Positions 48,561 to 58,388 of a DNA stretch of 64,000 bases are shown here, piece by piece. Origin of the DNA: Escherichia coli (GTDB lineage: Bacteria; Pseudomonadota; Gammaproteobacteria; Enterobacterales; Enterobacteriaceae); the NCBI RefSeq assembly GCF_003334305.1, contig NZ_QOWS01000018.1; one strand, given 5' to 3'. The position numbers were made by a program, and so were the translations under genes. The notes below the pieces were generated by a model, which worked only from the letters and a program-made list of their open reading frames with translations, was not told the origin of the DNA and searched no databases. The stretch's first letter is position 1; every line of letters begins with the position of its first letter.

Positions 48561-49802
48561 ATGAACAAAACGCTAATCGCCACAACTGTGGCAGGGATAG
48601 TTTTACTCGCTTCAAATGCTCAGGCACAAACCGTACCGGAAGGCTATCAGCTACAGCAAGTGCTCATGATGAGCCGCCATAACTTACGTGCGCCGCTGGC
48701 GAACAATGGCAGTGTGCTGGAGCAGTCGACGCCGAATAAATGGCCCGAATGGGACGTCCCCGGTGGGCAACTCACCACCAAAGGTGGCGTGCTCGAAGTG
48801 TATATGGGTCATTACATGCGTGAATGGCTGGCAGAGCAGGGGATGGTGAAATCGGGGGAATGCCCGCCGCCAGACACCGTTTATGCCTATGCCAATAGTC
48901 TGCAACGTACCGTTGCGACCGCACAGTTCTTTATTACCGGCGCATTCCCGGGGTGTGATATTCCTGTGCATCACCAGGAAAAAATGGGCACTATGGACCC
49001 AACCTTTAACCCGGTGATCACCGATGATTCCGCCGCATTCAGTGAACAGGCGGTGGCGGCAATGGAGAAAGAGCTCAGCAAACTCCAGCTTACCGACAGC
49101 TACCAGCTACTGGAAAAAATCGTTAACTATAAAGATTCCCCTGCCTGTAAAGAGAAACAACAGTGTTCGCTGGTGGATGGCAAAAATACCTTTAGCGCCA
49201 AGTATCAACAAGAACCAGGTGTTTCCGGGCCGCTGAAAGTCGGCAACTCGCTGGTAGATGCGTTTACTTTGCAATATTACGAAGGTTTTCCGATGGATCA
49301 GGTGGCCTGGGGAGAAATCAAATCTGACCAGCAGTGGAAGGTGTTGTCGAAGCTTAAAAACGGCTACCAGGACAGCCTGTTTACCTCACCGGAAGTGGCG
49401 CGCAATGTTGCGAAACCGCTGGTCAGTTATATCGACAAAGCTCTGGTCACCGATCGCACCAGCGCACCGAAAATTACAGTGTTGGTTGGGCACGACTCCA
49501 ACATTGCCTCTCTGTTAACGGCGCTGGATTTCAAACCGTATCAGTTGCATGACCAGAACGAACGCACGCCGATTGGCGGCAAAATCGTTTTCCAGCGTTG
49601 GCATGACAGCAAAGCCAATCGCGATTTGATGAAAATTGAATATGTGTATCAGAGTGCGGAACAGTTACGTAATGCCGATGCGTTAACCCTGCAGGCACCT
49701 GCTCAGCGTGTGACGCTGGAATTAAGCGGTTGCCCGATAGATGCCAACGGTTTCTGCCCGATGGATAAATTTGATAGCGTGTTGAATGAAGCGGTGAAAT
49801 AA
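48561..49802 (+). CDS. agp: Periplasmic glucose-1-phosphatase Agp (413 aa)
   Basis: Track ORF 48561..49802; signal peptide; histidine acid phosphatase motif RHNLRAP. Confidence 0.95.
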
Positions 49803-49809
49803 CAGAAAA

Positions 49810-49832
49810 CTCCCCCGCGAGAAGCGGGGGAG
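49810..49832. terminator. Bidirectional terminator between agp and yccJ
   Basis: CTCCCCCGC-GAGA-GCGGGGGAG perfect hairpin. Confidence 0.8.
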
Positions 49833-49839
49833 TCGCTGG

Positions 49840-50067
49840 TTAAACGTTTTTACGTTCGATGGTCTGTTCGCCCCAAAAAAGCGAATCTTTATCGGTCTTA
49901 GCAAAGGCTTTGACTAACACTTCATCGCTACCTTCTTCCCAAATCTTTTCCGCCATTTTTTCGTCGTACCCGGCGACTTCGAAAATGGCCTCGGCTATTT
50001 CCGGCGACGTATTGCGCAGAGATGCCCATTCACCGACGTGATGAGCTTTCGCTTCTTGAGTTGGCAT
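49840..50067 (-). CDS. yccJ: YccJ (75 aa)
   Basis: Track ORF 49840..50067; downstream of wrbA as in K-12. Confidence 0.92.
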
Positions 50068-50087
50068 GCGTATCCTCCTGTTGAAGA

Positions 50088-50693
50088 TTAGCCGTTAAGT
50101 TTAACTGCCAGACCTGCGACATATTCCCCTTGATAACGAGCAATAGACAGTTCTTCCTGGCTTGGCTGGCGTGAGCCGTCACCGCCTGCGATGGTTGTTG
50201 CGCCGTACGGCGTACCGCCGCGAACCTGTGAAACGTCAAATAATTCCTGCGCTGCGTAGCCAATGGGGACAATTACCATGCCGTGATGCGCAAGGGTCGT
50301 CCAGGTTGAAGTAATAGTTTGTTCCTGACCGCCGCCAGTACCGGTGGAACTAAAGACGCTCGCCAGTTTTCCGTATAGTGCGCCGGAAGCCCACAGGCCG
50401 CCCGTCTGGTCGAGGAAGGTACGCATTTGACCGGACATGTTGCCAAAGCGGGTAGGTGTACCAAAAATAATGGCGTCGTAATCGGCCAGTTCTTGCGGGG
50501 TTGCAACCGGTGCAGTTTGCGTTTTACCGCCTGCTTTTTCAAATAATTGCGGCGGCATGGTTTCCGGTACACGCTTAACGACAACTTCTGCGCCATCCAC
50601 TTTGCTTGCACCCTCAGCGACTGCGCGTGCCATCGTTTCAATATGTCCGTACATGGAATAATAAAGCACTAGTATTCTTGCCTTAACACTCAT
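50088..50693 (-). CDS. wrbA: NAD(P)H:quinone oxidoreductase WrbA with element-derived N-terminus (201 aa; MSVKARI replaces K-12 MAKV)
   Basis: Track ORF 50088..50693; identical to remembered WrbA from [21 protein letters not shown] onward; first 7 codons, RBS and promoter lie in inserted DNA. Confidence 0.9.
50663..50669. other. Left junction (attL) overlap sequence AAAGCAC
   Basis: Point where wrbA sequence changes from K-12-like to foreign; same heptamer at right junction. Confidence 0.6.
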
Positions 50694-50744
50694 ATCATTG
50701 TTCTCCTGTTCAATGAACCACTTAGATAAGCATAGTCCGAAGAT

Positions 50745-52388
50745 ATGAAGCTGCTAGTGACATACATCAGGTGGAGTACTAAAGAGCAAGACTCAGGAGA
50801 CTCCTTAAGACGACAAACAAACCTCATTGATGCTTTCTACTCTAAGCACAAAAACGATTATTACCTTCTTCCTGCTCACAGATACGTTGATAAGGGTAAA
50901 TCTGGTTTTCACCAGCAACATAAGAATCAAGGTTCTGACTTCAGACGTATGTTTGAAAATGTTATGTCTGGGGCTATTCCAGAAGGTTCCCTGATTGTTG
51001 TAGAGAACTTTGACCGCTTCAGTAGGGCTGATATCGACACAGCTATAGATGATGTCAGGCAGATACTGAGGAAGGGAGTCTCTATACTGACTCTGGGAGA
51101 TGGTGAACTCTACGACAAGTCAGCATTAACAGACCCTGTGAAGCTGATTAAGCACATCATCATAGCTGAGCGAGCACATCAGGAATCTCTTGTTAAACAA
51201 AAGCGTATAGCTCAGGTCTGGAACCATAAAACACAGCTTGCAAGAGAACTTAAGAAGCCTATGGGTAAGCAAGCCCCCGGATGGTTAGAGCTATCAGAAG
51301 ACGGTTCACACTACATCGTTGATGAAGATAAAGCGTCACTGGTGAATATCATCTATGACAAGCGTCTTTCTGGTATGTCGATGTTTGCTATCTGCAAATG
51401 GCTAAACGAACAAGGTTACCCGACCATTAATCAGCGTAAGGTCAGAATATCCAAGACTAAGAAACCGGATGGTAACTGGTCAGCTTTAAGCGTTAAACAC
51501 ATCCTGACTTCACGAAGTGTATTAGGTTACCTTCCCGCTAAGATTTCTACAGAAGACCGTAAAACAGTGTTACGTGAAGAAATTGAAGGGTTCTATCCTC
51601 AGATTGTCACAGATTCTAAGTTTTACGCTGTACAGCAACTGTTAGAGGAAACAGGGAAGGGGAAAACATCCAGCGGTGACCACTGGTTATACGTGAACAT
51701 ACTGAAGGGGCTTATCCGTTGTAAGTGTGGGCTTGTAATGACTCCTACAGGGATACGTAAACCCGTTTATCAAGGTACTTACCGTTGCAATGGTAATAAG
51801 GAGTCCCGTTGTAGCTACGGTACAGTGTCCAGAAAGTTACTTGATACACAGCTTTGTAGTCGTCTGTTTAGCAAACTGTCACAGCTACACGATGAAGCTA
51901 CCGATACAGCTAAATTAGATGAACTACAAAGAAGATTAAACACCGTTGATGGTGAACTGGAAAAACTCACTGAGACGCTGATACAGCTTCCTAACATCAC
52001 TCAGATTCAAGAAGCACTACGGGTTAAACAGGAAGAAAAAGATGAACTGATAGTTCAGTTATCACGAGAAAAGGCGAGGGTAAAATCTGTATCAAGCTTG
52101 GATTTAAGCGGTCTTGATATGGAGTCTGTAGAGGGGAGAACTGAAGCCCAGATTATCATTAAGCGTCTGGTGAAAGAGATTGTTGTTTCTGGTAATGAAA
52201 AGCTGGTGGATATATATCTTCACAATGGAAATATGATTCGTGGTTTCCCTCTTGATGGTAAAGATGACCACACCTTAACGCTTGAAGAAGCAACCGATGA
52301 GATGCAGTCACTAGATGATATGCTTATTTTTGGTGAACCAGTAACAAGGATTTATCCTGCTGGTGATATGGAAGAGGTGGACGCTTAG
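50745..52388 (+). CDS. Large serine recombinase (integrase), 547 aa
   Basis: N-terminal resolvase catalytic motif YIRWSTKEQ, central recombinase region, Cys-rich zinc-ribbon (CKCGLV...CNGNKESRC) and coiled coil; lies next to the junction. Confidence 0.85.
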
Positions 52389-53173
52389 TATTTTTTATTA
52401 GGGTTCACTGAGTACTTTTTAAGCTTTGAAGCTACTCGACCAGCGTTACTATTAGCATTGGTGACGTTGGTTTTTTCAGCTTCTGTTAAGTCTGAATAGT
52501 CCAGCTTCCAAGCCTTATTACACTTAATCTGAGCATCGAGAATATCATTTCTGATAGCTGGAGCGTAACCGGATACATCGCTAATACTCATTAGCTCTTT
52601 GCACGATAGCATAGGCGCGTTATTGCGTTCAGTGGTCACGTTACCTGCATTCTTCTTACTGGTCACACCACCATCATTCGTAGTCGCGGCTTTTCCAGTT
52701 GCAGCCGAGATATCAGTCTGCCCCACAACAGCTTTGAAGTTAATTTCCTGAAAAGTTAGTTGGATTCTTAATCCGTTTGAAATTCCAACATCTTTAGAGG
52801 CTTTAAAACTTGTGATAATGGAATCATCAATTTTAATTCCGTCTTTACAGATGACAGAAATAATCTGCTTCTGGTCACGCCAGTTTTCCAGAGTGTCAAT
52901 GAAGTTCTCTACTAATTGACCCTGACGAGTTAATAGTAAGCTTCCTTCATAACCAACTACAACGACACCACTGATAGTGATTGTTCTGGGTGCTCTTTGA
53001 ACATTATCTGTGACGGTTTGCCCTGATTGCATGTTCTGTGTAGTCACCTGCATAGGGCTATCAAATTCCATATTTTCAGTTGCTGATAAGGTTAAGAAGG
53101 CATCTACATTATCTCTTAAGTGGAAGTAAACGCCATCTTTGCCACTGTAGCGGATTTGATTGCTAAAAATCAT
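52385..53173 (-). CDS. Hypothetical protein (262 aa), downstream of the tape-measure-like gene; own copy of a shared promoter cassette
   Basis: Track ORF 52385..53194 (TTG); I prefer ATG at 53173 preceded by AAAGGAG; no recognizable motif; position would suit a distal tail protein but unproven. Confidence 0.6.
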
Positions 53174-53253
53174 TAAATTCTCCTTTGATTTCAAAGGCTT
53201 AGTGTATTTTAATCATTTTTAACCAAGCCTTTGATATATAAGTATTTTCTCTG

Positions 53254-53322
53254 TTAAGCGTGAGCTACGTAAATTCTATTTTTCAGTGCGGGTATTAACT
53301 TTGCTTTATTCACGTAGAACAC
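53254..53322 (-). promoter_or_regulatory. Promoter/5'-UTR cassette copy 1 (about 70 bp, repeated at 55517-55585)
   Basis: 34-bp identical core TAAGCGTGAGCTACGTAAATTCTATTTTTCAGTG plus flanks; contains inverted CTACGTAAA/TTCACGTAG. Confidence 0.55.
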
Positions 53323-53329
53323 CGTTAAA

Positions 53330-55498
53330 TCAATCATCTTCTGGGAATGATGAACTTAATAACGTAGCTTCTGCATATTGGTCGTAGATATTACTGCTAA
53401 AGGTCATAAAGCTGGTTTCATCTGGTTTAATGGCAACTTCACCACCAAGTGAAACTTTCACAGGCTCCTGAATACGCTTACTTAAAGCAGAGATTTCATC
53501 CCTCAGACCCTGAATATCTGCACTCGTTAATGCTGAATCTTGCTTAATGTTGTTTAATTCTGGATGATTGAATCTTGCAATATTCATTGTGGCATTGTTA
53601 AACAATTCACCCATTGAACTAAAAATTCTACTCCATCCTTCGTTAATCACATTCGGTTTATTAGGGTCACCAGAATACACAGGATTAAAGTCACTACCCA
53701 CACCTACCCCAGATGGATGCATATTAGCGTTTTTGACTACTTCCTGATTCATAAAATCCAGTGCTTTCTTCAATGCATATAAACCAAGAGTGACACCTCT
53801 GATTTGTGGAATCATTGAAGCTAATGCTAACGCTGTTTCATAACCGTCATCAGCATAACCAATTGCAAGAGCACTACCTACACCACCAGCTACACCTTTC
53901 AGTTTTCCACCACCTTTACCAGTAGCTACCTGACCAGCCACCTGATTAGCTCTTGTACCTAACGTTGTGATTGCTCTTGTCAGGTTCATAACCCCTGTAG
54001 TAGCACTGAATAGTGTCTTTGCAGATAACGCTATAGCAAGACCTTTGACGAAGTTGATAAATCCATCACCGACTTCATCAAGTAGCTTTCGCTTAGTGTC
54101 ATCAAGGCTGTAATAGGTCTTCTTAATCTGTAGAATCCAGCCTTCAAGGTGATTGTTAAAGATACGGATGTCATCTACACCAGCTTTAAGCATGTCGATA
54201 AGTCCACCGATAGCATCACCAGCGATAGAAGAACTCATACCCATTTCACTAAGCAGGTTACTCAGGCTGGATAAGAAGCCATTTAGCTCATCCTGTGAAC
54301 CTGAGAAGATTTTCACCATCGTATCATCCCAGTTGTTAGCCAGTTTCCCTAAAGCTGTCTGAGTGCTCTTAGCGACTTCAGCCCAGCCACCCGCTTTATC
54401 AATCATCAAGCCCATCTGTTTAGCGACTTTAGGGAGAGTATCACTACTTAAAATCTTCCCGTCTTTCATCGCTTTATCAAGCTCTGTAGCAGTCATACCC
54501 AGTGCTTCAGCGAATAGCTTAAATGCACCAGCCATACGGTCACCTAACTGACCACGAAGCTCTTCAGCCTGAATCTTGCCCTTGCTCGCCATCTGCTCAA
54601 ATGCTTTCAAAATGCCGTTTAGCTCATCGTTAGAAAGCCCCATTAAGCGACTCATAGCCGTTGCATTACCAAATAGCTCCTGTGTCTGTTCCTGTGACAT
54701 AGAACCCTGAGCACCTGCTGCAAACTTAGCGTAGCTTGATAGCCCTTCAGAGATATTAAGACCTGTCTTGTCTGCTAAATTTCGAATAAATACCTCAGCT
54801 TCAGATGCTTTATCACCAAGTACAAACTTAGCGGCTCTCTGTGCGGAATCTCGTTTAAGACCTGCATTCATGATGGCCTTGTAAGCGTTAAGAGCACCCA
54901 TCACAGAGTAAAATGCACCAGATAACTTGATTGCATTGCTTGCAAGATTATTAAATGCGTCGCTTGTATTGTTAATGCTGGTGGATGTATGACCTTTAGC
55001 TTTAGCAATTGCTTCTCTGACTGAAGCATTTAACTGAGTCAGCTTCTCATTGAATTTTGAAGAATCCATTGACCCAGCTTTAGCAGATAGCCCGTAAAAC
55101 TGAGATTTGATGTATTTCTGCAAAATAGGGTCAAAGCCTTTTAGCTTAGACATATTAGCTGAGTAAGCCGCTGTGATTGCTCTGTTGCCGCTAATTCGTG
55201 GCTGTCTTGGTTGTCTAAGTGGCTTTAAAGTGTCATCAATTTCCGTTTTAATCTTAAACGCTCTAGTGTTTTTAAGACGCTGCTCAATCTTGGAAACAGT
55301 TTTATCGACATTCTTTTCCATTAGTTTGAGAGAATCATTTAAAGGCGTAGGGTTAACTCTGAATGCCTTATTTAGTCGTTTCTCAATTCTTGATGCGATT
55401 TGCATCGTTTGTTTCTCGGCTTTTTCCAAGCCTTTTAAAACTTTCTGAGAGCTAAAACTTAGCTCAATCAAAAAATCATCAACTTTAAATTGTGCCAT
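53330..55498 (-). CDS. Tape-measure-like protein (722 aa), alpha-helical Ala/Gly/Ser/Leu-rich
   Basis: Track ORF; region GLSNDELNGILKAFEQMASKGKIQAEELRGQLGDRMAGAFKLFAEALGMTATELDKAMKDGKILSSD resembles phage tail tape-measure core; RBS AAGAGGTGA before ATG. Confidence 0.6.
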   Translation of the reverse strand: MAQFKVDDFLIELSFSSQKVLKGLEKAEKQTMQIASRIEKRLNKAFRVNPTPLNDSLKLMEKNVDKTVSKIEQRLKNTRAFKIKTEIDDTLKPLRQPRQPRISGNRAITAAYSANMSKLKGFDPILQKYIKSQFYGLSAKAGSMDSSKFNEKLTQLNASVREAIAKAKGHTSTSINNTSDAFNNLASNAIKLSGAFYSVMGALNAYKAIMNAGLKRDSAQRAAKFVLGDKASEAEVFIRNLADKTGLNISEGLSSYAKFAAGAQGSMSQEQTQELFGNATAMSRLMGLSNDELNGILKAFEQMASKGKIQAEELRGQLGDRMAGAFKLFAEALGMTATELDKAMKDGKILSSDTLPKVAKQMGLMIDKAGGWAEVAKSTQTALGKLANNWDDTMVKIFSGSQDELNGFLSSLSNLLSEMGMSSSIAGDAIGGLIDMLKAGVDDIRIFNNHLEGWILQIKKTYYSLDDTKRKLLDEVGDGFINFVKGLAIALSAKTLFSATTGVMNLTRAITTLGTRANQVAGQVATGKGGGKLKGVAGGVGSALAIGYADDGYETALALASMIPQIRGVTLGLYALKKALDFMNQEVVKNANMHPSGVGVGSDFNPVYSGDPNKPNVINEGWSRIFSSMGELFNNATMNIARFNHPELNNIKQDSALTSADIQGLRDEISALSKRIQEPVKVSLGGEVAIKPDETSFMTFSSNIYDQYAEATLLSSSFPEDD

Positions 55499-55516
55499 TG
55501 TTCATATTTCACCTCT

Positions 55517-55585
55517 TTAAGCGTGAGCTACGTAAATTCTATTTTTCAGTGTGGGTATTAGCTTTACAGATTTCACGTAGCACAC
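55517..55585 (-). promoter_or_regulatory. Promoter/5'-UTR cassette copy 2
   Basis: Same repeat as 53254-53322, immediately upstream of the 722-aa gene. Confidence 0.55.
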
Positions 55586-55699
55586 ATAGGATTCGATAGA
55601 AGACTATCTCATATACAAAAAAGGAGAGTTACCGATGTCACTCGATAATCTCTCCCGTAGATTTTTACCCAACCAATTCTATTAGAAGCTAATCTCAAA

Positions 55700-55915
55700 T
55701 TAATGGTAAACGTAAGAATACATCCCATCATCACCTAAAATCTGTGCGTCACATGGTAATTTATCTAAGCACCATGAAGGAATCTTACGTACCTTTGGTT
55801 TATGTGAGGTGATAACTTGATGCTGATTTTTAATTCGTAGCTTTGGTTTAGTCTGAAGCTTTAAGTTCTCACAAACAGACTTAATAAGTTCATAGCGTTC
55901 TGTTAAATCAATCAT
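55700..55915 (-). CDS. Hypothetical protein (71 aa)
   Basis: Track ORF; 23 nt downstream of the 236-aa gene. Confidence 0.45.
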   Translation of the reverse strand: MIDLTERYELIKSVCENLKLQTKPKLRIKNQHQVITSHKPKVRKIPSWCLDKLPCDAQILGDDGMYSYVYH

Positions 55916-55938
55916 TCACCACCTCTTTTAATTCATAG

Positions 55939-56649
55939 TTAAAGTGCCTTGCTATATTTCTGAGAAATCTTCACTAACTGCTCAATATCAGCCTGCATAG
56001 CAATCTTCTTCTGCGTTTCATATGCAGAAATAAGCTCTTTCATAGCCTGAAGCTCTCTTGAGAGATACAACTTAACATTTTCAAGTTGCTTGTTACGTGA
56101 TGCCAAGATGTTCTGTCTGGCAAGTTCAGCGAGTTCTTCATCGCTCTTATTAGTCGTGTAAATAAACTGACCAGCACCCCTTGAAGCTTTAACCATCTTC
56201 ACAATTCGATATCCAGCAGGAAGACTACTAATCACGGCTGCGACGTTTTCTTGAAAAGTACCAAAACCATCATTGTCTTCGTATGTGAAGTAAACATACG
56301 GCTTCTGTGACAATTCATCCTGAATCTCAAATTCTGACGGCTCAATAGCTGATTGCATCAGGGTAACTTTACTGTAAGCATCATCTAGTTTAATACGCTG
56401 TGCTTTTAGCAGTGGGTAATATTCACGCTCAAGCTCAAGTAATGCTTCAGTTTTGCATACATCAGGCATCTCTTGAGGCTCAGGAGACACAAAGATGATT
56501 TCCTTTGGTGACATTCGGATTTCTTGCTCAAGCTTAATTCTTTCATCGTGTTCTTTACGCTGAATAGCGATAGCTGGATGTTCAGTCTGTGGCGACCAGT
56601 CACCGAAGCTATCAATCACTTTGCCATTAATGTAAATATCATTTGTCAT
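55939..56649 (-). CDS. Hypothetical protein (236 aa)
   Basis: Track ORF; no recognizable motif; downstream of a consensus promoter with about 350-nt leader. Confidence 0.6.
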   Translation of the reverse strand: MTNDIYINGKVIDSFGDWSPQTEHPAIAIQRKEHDERIKLEQEIRMSPKEIIFVSPEPQEMPDVCKTEALLELEREYYPLLKAQRIKLDDAYSKVTLMQSAIEPSEFEIQDELSQKPYVYFTYEDNDGFGTFQENVAAVISSLPAGYRIVKMVKASRGAGQFIYTTNKSDEELAELARQNILASRNKQLENVKLYLSRELQAMKELISAYETQKKIAMQADIEQLVKISQKYSKAL

Positions 56650-57008
56650 TGTTTTTTCCTCTTCTAAGCTAAAGTATTTCAGTTTTTAAAAAGCACACCT
56701 GACAGCCTATCTAAACTTAGAAGAGACTTAAAAGGCGGTTTGCCAAGTATGCTTTTTAAAAGCTGAAAAAGCCCTAGATAACTAAAACGCTATAAAGGGC
56801 TAAGGTGAAGAAATTAAAACATCTAAAGGATTCAATAACGAATGAACAAAGACTTTTCGAGATAGCCTCTCAGGTTGTATAAGAGGCCATGTAGCGAAAA
56901 GCATTGCACCTTTCAGAATGTTCGGTATAGAACATACCTCACCAACTCAGAATATCCATCCATCGGATTATTGAAATAAATAAGAGAGAAATTCTCTCTA
57001 TAATTAAA

Positions 57009-57037
57009 ATTATGTCATGCTTAAGGTTATTTGTCAA
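57009..57037 (-). promoter_or_regulatory. Near-consensus sigma70 promoter (TTGACA-17-CATAAT) reading toward the 236-aa gene
   Basis: Minus strand: TTGACA at 57032-57037, CATAAT at 57009-57014; palindrome AGAGAG-N5-CTCTCT at 56983-56999 near +1. Confidence 0.6.
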
Positions 57038-57062
57038 CAGCTTTTTAACAGATTGGTAACAT

Positions 57063-57128
57063 TTATACTTTAATAGATGCACCTGCAATCATACCAATCA
57101 ACACAAAACAGAGAATCACCAATTCCAT
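57063..57128 (-). CDS. Candidate 21-aa hydrophobic peptide, translationally coupled (TAATG) to the upstream 107-aa gene
   Basis: MELVILCFVLIGMIAGASIKV; ATG overlaps the preceding stop; not in track (too short). Confidence 0.25.
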   Translation of the reverse strand: MELVILCFVLIGMIAGASIKV

Positions 57129-57451
57129 TAATGCACCACCTTCGAATCCGTAACCAGAATATTATCGCTGTACAAAATTGCTATAGCCGCCTTGAGATAT
57201 TTTTCAGGGCTAACGCTGTATTTGTTCGTTTGCTCGACAACCAATCTTTTCATGTTGCTGTCTTTAATTGGTAGCATCATTCGAGGCTCGTTAAACTCCA
57301 CCGACTGAATAAAGTCAGAGATGCTTTCCGCATTATCAGTCATTAACTCTAACAACTTATCAAAGTCAATGCTAACACCTACATCAGTGAAAGCCTGAAT
57401 CATCATGGCGGTGTCGGTATCAATAAAAATCTGTAATTCGTAATTGTTCAT
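57128..57451 (-). CDS. Hypothetical protein (107 aa)
   Basis: Track ORF 57128..57484; I prefer ATG at 57451 preceded by AAGGAG-9nt. Confidence 0.55.
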   Translation of the reverse strand: MNNYELQIFIDTDTAMMIQAFTDVGVSIDFDKLLELMTDNAESISDFIQSVEFNEPRMMLPIKDSNMKRLVVEQTNKYSVSPEKYLKAAIAILYSDNILVTDSKVVH

Positions 57452-57606
57452 TTTTAAAATCTCCTTTTTACCAGACCTCCTCAATCGCTCTGTAACGAGC
57501 TAAACAGTCTTTTTCAGGGGTAGCCTGTACAGTGGTATTACCCACCCTAAAATAAGATAGTTTTTTGCGTCAGAATGCGATTGAGAGCGTCTGAGAAGCT
57601 GTTTTT

Positions 57607-57894
57607 CTAATTTCTCTTAAAGTCTCGGACTTGCATAAGATTTTTTGGTCTGGTATCGGCTCTGTTACCATTTCGATGGATAATTTGCTTGTTGGATTGA
57701 TAGCCATGATAAAGAAACCAGACAACATATTTCACGTAGAAAGTATATCGGCCTATATTAAATGTTTTGTTGCCGTAGTCGTCGGTGTTTATCGTGACTG
57801 ACTCTCCATCAGACCAGCACAGGGAATCACTGGATTCATCATAGATAAGGTGTTCTGCAAAATATCTTCTAACATCTTCATTCCAAGGTTTCAT
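57607..57894 (-). CDS. HNH endonuclease-like protein (95 aa)
   Basis: KYVVWFLYHGYQSNKQIIHRNGNRADTRPKNL matches the HNH_3-type pattern; ATGA overlap with upstream ORF. Confidence 0.65.
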   Translation of the reverse strand: MKPWNEDVRRYFAEHLIYDESSDSLCWSDGESVTINTDDYGNKTFNIGRYTFYVKYVVWFLYHGYQSNKQIIHRNGNRADTRPKNLMQVRDFKRN

Positions 57895-58106
57895 AAAACC
57901 TCCTCACCCCAATAACCTAATTCAATCTTGTGACGCTCAAACCATTCCGGTTTAACTGCTGTTTTCAGTACTTCATTTGGGCCAATGGCTTTAATGAAAA
58001 TATCTTTTGAGTTATGGATGTCACCGAATCCGTTTCCTTCAATCAGGAGGTCGGAGATGTAGCGAATCATTTTATCCGTGTGGTATTCAAAGGTAACGCA
58101 TAGCAT
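57891..58106 (-). CDS. Hypothetical protein (71 aa)
   Basis: Track ORF; coupled between the RHH-like and HNH genes. Confidence 0.5.
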   Translation of the reverse strand: MLCVTFEYHTDKMIRYISDLLIEGNGFGDIHNSKDIFIKAIGPNEVLKTAVKPEWFERHKIELGYWGEEVL

Positions 58107-58387
58107 TAAACCTCCAGAGACAGCTTGTGAATCTTAAGACTCAATAGACGGGCAATATCAATTTTAAAGCCGTTAAGTCCCTTCAAAGTATCTAAAGCGT
58201 CCTGAGTAATTCGGATGTGTTTACGACCTTTAGAGACTGGATATTTAAGTAAATCCGACTCAGTAACCTCTTTAGCAATTGCAAGCTGCATAACAGTCTG
58301 ATGAGGTAAGTTAGTAGCTCGTTTAATTCTGGCAAGCTCGTTAAAAGCTTCCTCTGAAATGCGGGTTAAAGTGTGTTTGTTTTTCAT
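58106..58387 (-). CDS. Ribbon-helix-helix-like small DNA-binding protein (93 aa)
   Basis: N-terminal TLTRISEEAFNELARIKRATNLPHQTVMQLAI resembles RHH (CopG/Arc) fold pattern. Confidence 0.5.
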   Translation of the reverse strand: MKNKHTLTRISEEAFNELARIKRATNLPHQTVMQLAIAKEVTESDLLKYPVSKGRKHIRITQDALDTLKGLNGFKIDIARLLSLKIHKLSLEV

Positions 58388-58388
58388 T

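Follow-up and report, generated by a model that had tools for sequence, protein, structure and literature searches.

The subject of this analysis is the 5′ end of wrbA in a 64,000-nt stretch of Escherichia coli DNA (contig NZ_QOWS01000018.1 of assembly GCF_003334305.1), referred to here as "the window". An integrative element of 11,948 bp (50670-62617; boundaries set from the junctions and the rebuilt attB and attP sites) lies within the first codons of this gene. On its left side, an open reading frame (ORF) of 201 codons on the minus strand (50088-50693; RefSeq WP_000111568.1) encodes WrbA and is followed by yccJ. Divergent from it, on the plus strand, is a gene for a large serine recombinase (LSR) of 547 aa, with resolvase and Recombinase domains (50745-52388); the two ORFs start at 50693 and 50745, leaving a gap of 51 bp (50694-50744). 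On the right side of the element, the native wrbA start, ATGGCTAAAGTTCTGGTGCTTT, is found at 62611-62632 on the minus strand. Next to it lies the native wrbA upstream region (62633-62780, minus strand), which is identical to that of K-12 and includes GCTACGGA as a −10-like motif (TACGGA, 62661-62666), and beyond this region lies ymdF (about 63005-63178).

The rebuilt wrbA ORF opens with ATGAGTGTTAAGGCAAGAATACTAGTGCTTTAT on the minus strand and continues as normal WrbA without a stop codon. Its first eight codons (ATG AGT GTT AAG GCA AGA ATA CTA; 50670-50693, minus strand) are element-derived and also form the left arm of attP. A Shine-Dalgarno sequence, AGGAG(AA), is located 9 nt upstream of the new ATG (50703-50707, minus strand). 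MSVKARIL replaces MAKVL, which amounts to the changes K3R and V4I plus three extra residues (201 vs 198 aa). A sequence-only reading of this locus had claimed that the wrbA frame is kept under a new N-terminus, that the element supplies the start codon and ribosome-binding site (RBS) at a divergent distance of 51 bp from the recombinase, and that the original start now lies beside ymdF, separating wrbA from its native promoter. The 201-codon ORF bears out the first of these claims, the 51-bp distance is exact, and the native start and upstream region are indeed displaced, with wrbA and its native promoter now 11.9 kb apart. The replacement of the N-terminus also stands, although it is smaller than described: only the five native residues MAKVL are swapped, with the crossover at the GT of codon 6. 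The coordinate at which that reading began the feature, 50663, is the last base of a 7-bp junction identity, GTGCTTT.

Boundaries, attachment sites, and excision

Comparison of the two junctions defines the ends of the element. The 7-bp identity GTGCTTT is present once at attL (50663-50669, minus strand) and once at attR (62611-62617), within the displaced native start. When the outer flanks are joined, they reproduce the K-12 wrbA 5′ region, i.e., attB, with one mismatch in 260 nt. The inner ends, once joined, yield a predicted attP, ...ATGAGTGTTAAGGCAAGAATACTA-GT-GCTTTTACATAGCTAAACAC..., whose arms, GTGTTAAG and CTAAACAC, form an imperfect inverted repeat with 12 of 24 positions matching around the GT. 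This dinucleotide is at once the center of the imperfect dyad and the first two bases of the native Val6 codon. In Klebsiella michiganensis, which carries a related element (see below), the junctions share only CTGGT. The crossover is placed at the GT of codon 6 (50668-50669 in the window) because GT is the sole dinucleotide common to the identity blocks of both species; this placement draws on two junction pairs, one from E. coli and one from K. michiganensis. Short sites, an imperfect dyad about a 2-bp crossover, and clean restoration of attB and attP are the properties of an LSR element.

The predicted attP exists in nature. We scanned metagenomes with a 26-nt query encoding the new N-terminus and found 16 stretches. 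Twelve of these are attL junctions; the other four come from three contigs (L014; L020/L021, a single contig; and L022) that carry attP and no host DNA. The attP rebuilt from the window is the attP found on these contigs. L014 is 11,233 bp long and has a 55-bp terminal repeat, indicating a circular assembly, and its element is circularly permuted, with the position corresponding to 50663 of the window joined to 62617. Another contig, OOBX01000469.1 (23,009 bp), holds two copies of the element, 11.48 kb apart. The exact attP had no match in IMG/VR. The occurrence of the predicted attP in metagenomes, once on a circular contig, shows that the element excises. It also settles the ownership of the new gene start: because the attP form carries the ATG, AGGAG(AA), and the same 24 nt of coding sequence (in L014, L020, and L022), the start codon, RBS, and first eight codons are part of the mobile element, as the sequence-only reading had held. 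The LSR-driven element, its attB and attP, its boundaries, and its circular form are therefore established.

The recombinase itself has the architecture of the LSR class, an N-terminal resolvase catalytic domain with a Recombinase domain in a protein of about 450–700 aa. The Pfam domains listed for a protein (P0045) that is 99% identical to the LSR of the window are PF00239 and PF07508. The N-terminus carries the serine motif, and NCBIfam adds weak matches to XisF and CcrC. PF13408, a zinc ribbon, is recorded only for distant relatives (P0054-P0058), outside the clade of the window LSR. A phage collection contained no close relative, the best match being 29% identical, to YbcK-like recombinases. 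The products of recombination, i.e., attL, attR, and attP on a circular contig, are all seen, and catalysis by this LSR is the predicted means by which they arise. In strain SLK172 (L005, 14116-17490), the LSR gene is broken by ISEc12, of the IS21 family, and the wrbA product is identical, at 201 aa; the SLK172 element has probably been immobilized by this insertion.

Conservation and origin of the rebuilt wrbA start

The attL junction occurs in 74 of 5,426 complete E. coli genomes, spread over many serotypes, and wrbA is annotated as a normal coding sequence in the 60 of these 74 genomes listed. All element variants examined are 11–12 kb long. Neither the 51-bp gap nor the new codons differ between variants whose recombinase 5′ coding regions are ~5% divergent; one element variant has a synonymous change, GTG to GTA. 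The 201-aa ORF is intact in 11 of 11 attL loci that span the whole gene, leaving out one locus (L003) in which a second prophage has also inserted and cuts the gene. In UniRef, the exact rebuilt protein serves as the representative NQOR_SHISS, which is the Swiss-Prot entry for Shigella sonnei WrbA; it is encoded on at least 1,000 contigs. Papers on the Stx1 phages of S. sonnei call the gene of strain Ss046 simply "wrbA", and we found no literature linking wrbA to a serine recombinase.

Related elements occupy the same site in other genera. LSRs that are 61–65% identical to that of the window are found in Pantoea dispersa, K. michiganensis, Enterobacter hormaechei, Erwinia sp., and a JGI metagenome (L012), all at the same wrbA position and divergent from wrbA-yccJ, with gaps of 40–44 bp. 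The rebuilt WrbA proteins at these sister loci are 205–206 aa long. One N-terminal form is shared by Pantoea and E. hormaechei, another by Erwinia and L012, and that of K. michiganensis is MSSSELRGKPRILVLYY. Each sister lineage has its own in-frame ATG, with a motif of the AGGA/GGAG/AAGG type 6–11 nt upstream. The distance from start to crossover is 8 codons in E. coli and 12–13 codons in the other lineages, and is always in frame. Within the shared codon block, most changes are synonymous (by hand count, about 7 synonymous vs 3 non-synonymous): AGA/CGT (Arg), ATA/ATT, CTA/CTG/CTC, GCA/GCC, and CGT/CGC are examples of the former, and the latter are V/G, A/P, and S/R. The arrangement of an in-frame ATG with a Shine-Dalgarno sequence recurs in at least four diverged lineages. 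By comparison, random 90-mers drawn from the element provided an in-frame ATG and Shine-Dalgarno sequence without a stop codon in 1.7% of trials. The rebuilt-start arrangement is thus conserved in LSR relatives across five genera.

A source for such gene starts can be found among Enterobacterales loci that lack the LSR, where WrbA proteins with naturally longer N-termini are encoded and the wrbA-ymdF spacers are colinear with that of K-12. The N-termini in question are MSGKAKILVLYYS (Scandinavium, L031), MQTTDGAKARVLVLYYS (L032), MQNNEQGSVKILVLYYS (L033), and MQNREPGSAKILVLFYS (Yokenella, L034). We considered whether these long N-termini are scars of lost elements, and rejected this explanation for all four loci, since their spacers are colinear and contain neither a remnant of the native start nor the right arm of attP. 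As a side observation, native Enterobacterales WrbA proteins have lengths of 198, 199, 200, 201, and 205 aa (e.g., MSGKAKILVL, MSATTKVLVL, and MQTTDGAKARVLVL), and the variation is confined to the stretch just before strand beta-1.

The 5′ piece of the element is significantly similar to these native wrbA 5′ regions, with z-scores from 6.3 to 13.7. The highest score is that of the Erwinia element against native L033 (z = 13.7), for which the similarity covers ~100 nt, from ATTTCATGTGCTACGC to the crossover, and includes ATGTGCTACGCTT. The Pantoea element aligns to the same locus with z = 8.4. For the E. coli element, the Shine-Dalgarno sequence, ATG, and arm align to native Scandinavium MSGKAKILVLYY with z = 6.3; this similarity also appears to enter the first LSR codons, which carry no weight here since they must in any case encode the recombinase. 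A search with the 40-aa N-terminus as protein query matched nothing but fragments and was of no use. A closer origin was also tried and rejected: the 51-bp gap is not recognizable as a copy of the K-12 wrbA upstream region, as the alignment is not significant (p about 0.1–0.2) and the 9-mer TAAGTGGTT alone is shared. Judged by these alignments, the cassette is a derivative of the wrbA 5′ region of another lineage.

We consider it likely that the 11.9-kb LSR element at the GT of wrbA codon 6 carries a portable wrbA 5′ cassette that keeps the gene whole. In the proposed mechanism, the LSR would insert the element site-specifically at the GT of codon 6. The cassette would consist of the left arm of attP and ~50 nt beyond it, comprising a σS-type −10 element (see below), a short 5′ untranslated region, the Shine-Dalgarno sequence, the ATG, and eight codons, the last of which (...ARIL) would mimic the displaced native MAKVL. 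Integration would then swap the host 5′ end for a related one of other-lineage origin, and a full-length 201-aa WrbA would result, with translation, and probably transcription, beginning inside the element. Selection for a low cost of insertion may maintain the cassette.

Expression of rebuilt wrbA and alternative explanations

The rebuilt protein is recognized as WrbA by both NCBIfam equivalogs, NF002999 (353 bits; cutoff, 141) and TIGR01755 (348 bits; cutoff, 132.5). Residues 8–201 are identical to PDB 2r96, and the SMYGH loop that binds flavin mononucleotide is untouched. WrbA in the PDB begins (M)AKVLVLYYS. There are crystal structures of WrbA-family chains extended at the N-terminus by 21 residues (5f51) or 33 residues (7q6n, 7q6m), and natural WrbA forms of 201–205 aa exist. 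Given the identity from residue 8, the crystallized extended chains, and these natural forms, loss of function through the N-terminus is unlikely, and from its sequence the rebuilt WrbA is almost certainly active.

The sequence-only reading had further proposed that expression of wrbA-yccJ would depend on signals borne by the element. For translation this is correct, as the ATG and Shine-Dalgarno sequence are on the element; for transcription, a dependence of this kind is what the following comparison suggests. The signals also prove to be less foreign than that reading implied, being those of a diverged copy of an Enterobacterales-type wrbA 5′ region. wrbA is controlled by RpoS (PMC8229589). 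Native loci share GCTAC(G/A)CT, which has the shape of a σS-type −10 element with C at −13, 28–42 nt upstream of the start codon; the K-12 version is TCGCTACGGA. Three sister lineages of the element (Pantoea, Enterobacter, and Erwinia) retain a σS-type −10 element, GCTACGCT, in the form of TGTGCTACGCTT abutting the LSR start codon. In the element of the window, CTATGCT aligns with the CTACGCT of the sister elements as well as with the native GCTAC(G/A)CT, and is a candidate σS-type −10 element (C at −13, then TATGCT; 50729-50735, minus strand), 35 nt upstream of the ATG. We infer that CTATGCT would work as a −10 element and that the element would bring a minimal wrbA-type promoter core with none of the native upstream region. 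WrbA would then presumably be made at useful levels in carriers.

Several observations weigh against a borrowed, functional 5′ cassette. First, upstream of the Shine-Dalgarno sequence, the E. coli element has no significant homology to native sequence. Second, similarity between the arm and attB is partly expected, since one recombinase binds both sites. Third, the CTAYGCTT motif is missing from the gap of the K. michiganensis element. Fourth, the 220 nt preceding the new ATG contain no promoter with at least 8 of 12 matches to the σ70 consensus. Fifth, the −35 position lies within the coding sequence of the recombinase. Lastly, the −10 element of the E. coli element is assigned from its position and from the sister elements.

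These observations leave room for other sources of wrbA mRNA. One is read-through, in which wrbA would be transcribed mainly from the leftward operon of the element (62093 to 52385), antisense across the recombinase gene. The arrangement of the genes is suitable: all element genes except the LSR gene point toward wrbA, the gene for a Dit-like tail protein overlaps the LSR stop codon by 4 bp, leaving no room for a terminator, and the LSR gene has a single weak terminator-like hairpin on that strand (51686-51670). However, the transcript would need to run through 1.6 kb of antisense sequence. Moreover, read-through leaves unexplained why a native-type −10 element has been retained just upstream of the 5′ untranslated region, and why the gap is perfectly conserved while the adjoining coding sequence varies. 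We regard read-through as an unlikely main source of wrbA transcripts.

Alternatively, the insertion could be silent, such that the ORF is formally intact and wrbA-yccJ is effectively off in carriers for want of a real promoter in the gap. The scans that found no consensus σ70 promoter are consistent with this, as are the displacement by 11.9 kb of the native upstream region and whatever activator sites it contains, and the dispensability of wrbA in planktonic growth (PMC8229589). A silent gene is nonetheless hard to reconcile with the preservation of the ATG, Shine-Dalgarno sequence, and open frame between elements whose recombinases are 35–39% diverged, with mostly synonymous changes, with the native-wrbA-type −10 element retained in three element lineages, or with the intact gene on at least 1,000 contigs, including those of S. 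sonnei. Silence of the rebuilt gene is accordingly improbable in our view.

A third explanation dispenses with selection on WrbA altogether: the frame would be continuous as a by-product of att-site mimicry, because the half-sites of attP and attB must match. The left arms do match at 7 of 12 bases beside the crossover (GCAAGAATACTA vs GCTAAAGTTCTG). Yet such matching yields neither an ATG at the outer edge of the arm nor a Shine-Dalgarno sequence 35 nt from the crossover, a combination with a chance of about 1.7% per lineage, and the start distance varies (8 vs 12–13 codons) with the frame always kept; a mere by-product is very improbable. Equally remote is a regulatory switch of the active-lysogeny type, with reversible excision restoring native wrbA regulation under some conditions, for although free attP forms show that excision happens, the gene interruption during integration that defines such switches is absent, the ORF being intact, and wrbA is unchanged in SLK172, where the LSR gene is broken by ISEc12.

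Related insertions and element cargo

That an element can replace the gene end it displaces is an established principle. The e14 and phage 21 insertions at icd, and integration into tRNA genes, likewise involve an element that carries a substitute for the displaced end, which keeps the target working (PMC6379469, PMC3603311), and the in-frame continuation of the gene into element sequence seen at e14-icd and Rac-ttcA is also seen at wrbA. In contrast to the wrbA element, however, e14, phage 21, and elements in tRNA genes replace 3′ ends, which require no expression signals. The wrbA element must bring a start codon, an RBS, and a promoter element because it is the 5′ end that is replaced. The nearest parallel is offered by the Rac prophage at ttcA, whose integrase is of the tyrosine type. 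The N-terminus of TtcA differs between strains with and without Rac and, as at wrbA, integration is site-specific, within the first codons, and the gene reads on from element sequence (PMC6379469). The wrbA element differs from Rac in its use of an LSR, in the homology of its cassette to native wrbA 5′ regions of other genera, and in the conservation of that cassette across five genera. What stands out here is a cassette demonstrably derived from the wrbA of another lineage, with site and cassette conserved in an LSR clade over five genera.

The same gene is a well-known target of Shiga toxin (Stx) phages. The 933W and Sp5 (VT2-Sakai) prophages are inserted in the same 5′ region, and likewise lie between wrbA and ymdF. 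Unlike the wrbA element, they have a tyrosine-type int and xis, and their core, TTGAAAC (50635-50641 in the window, minus strand), lies 27 bp further into the gene, downstream of the crossover of the wrbA element. The outcome for the gene also differs. The frame at 933W and Sp5, MINHILRHVETMA..., lacks strand beta-1 along with part of the SMYGH loop, and in the deposited records the gene is annotated as divided. The tyrosine integrase, xis, and TTGAAAC core that mark Stx-type insertion are not those of the wrbA element. Two unrelated recombinases, an LSR and an Stx-phage integrase, thus use sites in wrbA that are 27 bp apart. One IMG/VR contig (L003, 2880-2950) has an insertion at each site, with ~30 bp of wrbA separating the two mobile elements. 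In S. sonnei, wrbA is a site at which Stx1 phages are acquired (PMC4943565, PMC5177732), and polymerase chain reaction assays that score wrbA occupancy may confuse insertions of the LSR element with those of Stx phages.

SPbeta in spsM and A118-type phages in comK are further cases in which an LSR targets a site within a coding sequence and excision is precise. Their target genes are reportedly inactive until excision, in contrast to the integrated wrbA ORF, which is intact. A more distant LSR, 35% identical to that of the window (L013, 3601-5641), diverges across 34 bp from yecE (DUF72), here truncated to 121 aa, cut mid-gene, and not rebuilt; yecE is another classic insertion gene of Stx phages.

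A borrowed 5′ cassette would let a mobile element settle in the start of a conserved gene with little burden on the host. Its insertion explains the 201-aa WrbA with an odd N-terminus in some E. coli and in all Swiss-Prot-type Shigella sonnei; such "alleles" are chimeric. Furthermore, this LSR has a natural attB in E. coli and its relatives, and with attB, attP, and the central GT assigned by comparison it could serve as an integration tool.

The cargo of the element includes genes for a Dit-like tail protein of 269 aa (52385-53194, minus strand), a tape-measure-like protein of 722 aa (53330-55498, minus strand), and a small serine recombinase/DNA invertase of 183 aa (61542-62093, minus strand). 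Every element gene but the LSR gene is oriented toward wrbA. The Dit-like and tape-measure-like genes are the only recognizable morphogenetic genes; no capsid, terminase, primase, or replication gene could be recognized in the element, and several of its ORFs belong to no family. Tail-gene cargo is also present in L004, L005, L006, L012, and L014. PADLOC detected no defense system and a single orphan methyltransferase match, and Rfam detected no RNA family in 49700-63300. The size of the element (11–12 kb) and its free circular forms are compatible with phage satellites, i.e., phage-inducible chromosomal islands (PICI), capsid-forming PICI (cfPICI), or P4-like elements. The element could represent an undescribed family of tail-gene-carrying phage satellites or of stable prophage remnants.

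Integration also changes the surroundings of the native wrbA upstream region, which is now directed into the element, with the invertase gene as the first gene downstream of the displaced promoter. The displaced native start heads a 10-codon ORF, MAKVLVLLHS* (62632 to ~62600), and the invertase gene begins ~520 nt downstream. It is conceivable, if rather unlikely, that promoters are exchanged reciprocally, with wrbA receiving a foreign-lineage cassette and the element, possibly an undescribed tail-gene satellite, gaining the RpoS-controlled native promoter. If this were true, the invertase and the leftward operon (methyltransferase, HNH, tape-measure-like, and Dit-like genes) would be tied to stationary-phase and stress signaling only while the element is integrated. 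As a separate observation, the native upstream region (62700-62735, minus strand; K-12 locus L030) contains two copies of AAATAAGTGGT, ~40 nt apart, and the 51-bp gap has CTAAGTGGTT; these may represent the site of a regulator, or else a chance resemblance (alignment p about 0.1).

The invertase gene has repeats of its own. The motifs GTCTCAAAAG and CTTTTGAGAC recur in direct and inverted orientation at 62105-62220, just upstream of the gene, in an iteron- or operator-like pattern. A possible inversion of the invertase segment between strains A7 and 2012C-4227 was rejected, since blastn identified a non-homologous recombinase gene there. In the window, two pairs of inverted repeats of 20–21 nt bracket the gene (60854-60874 / 62421-62441 and 61525-61544 / 62307-62326), and their placement suggests that they may mark an invertible segment.

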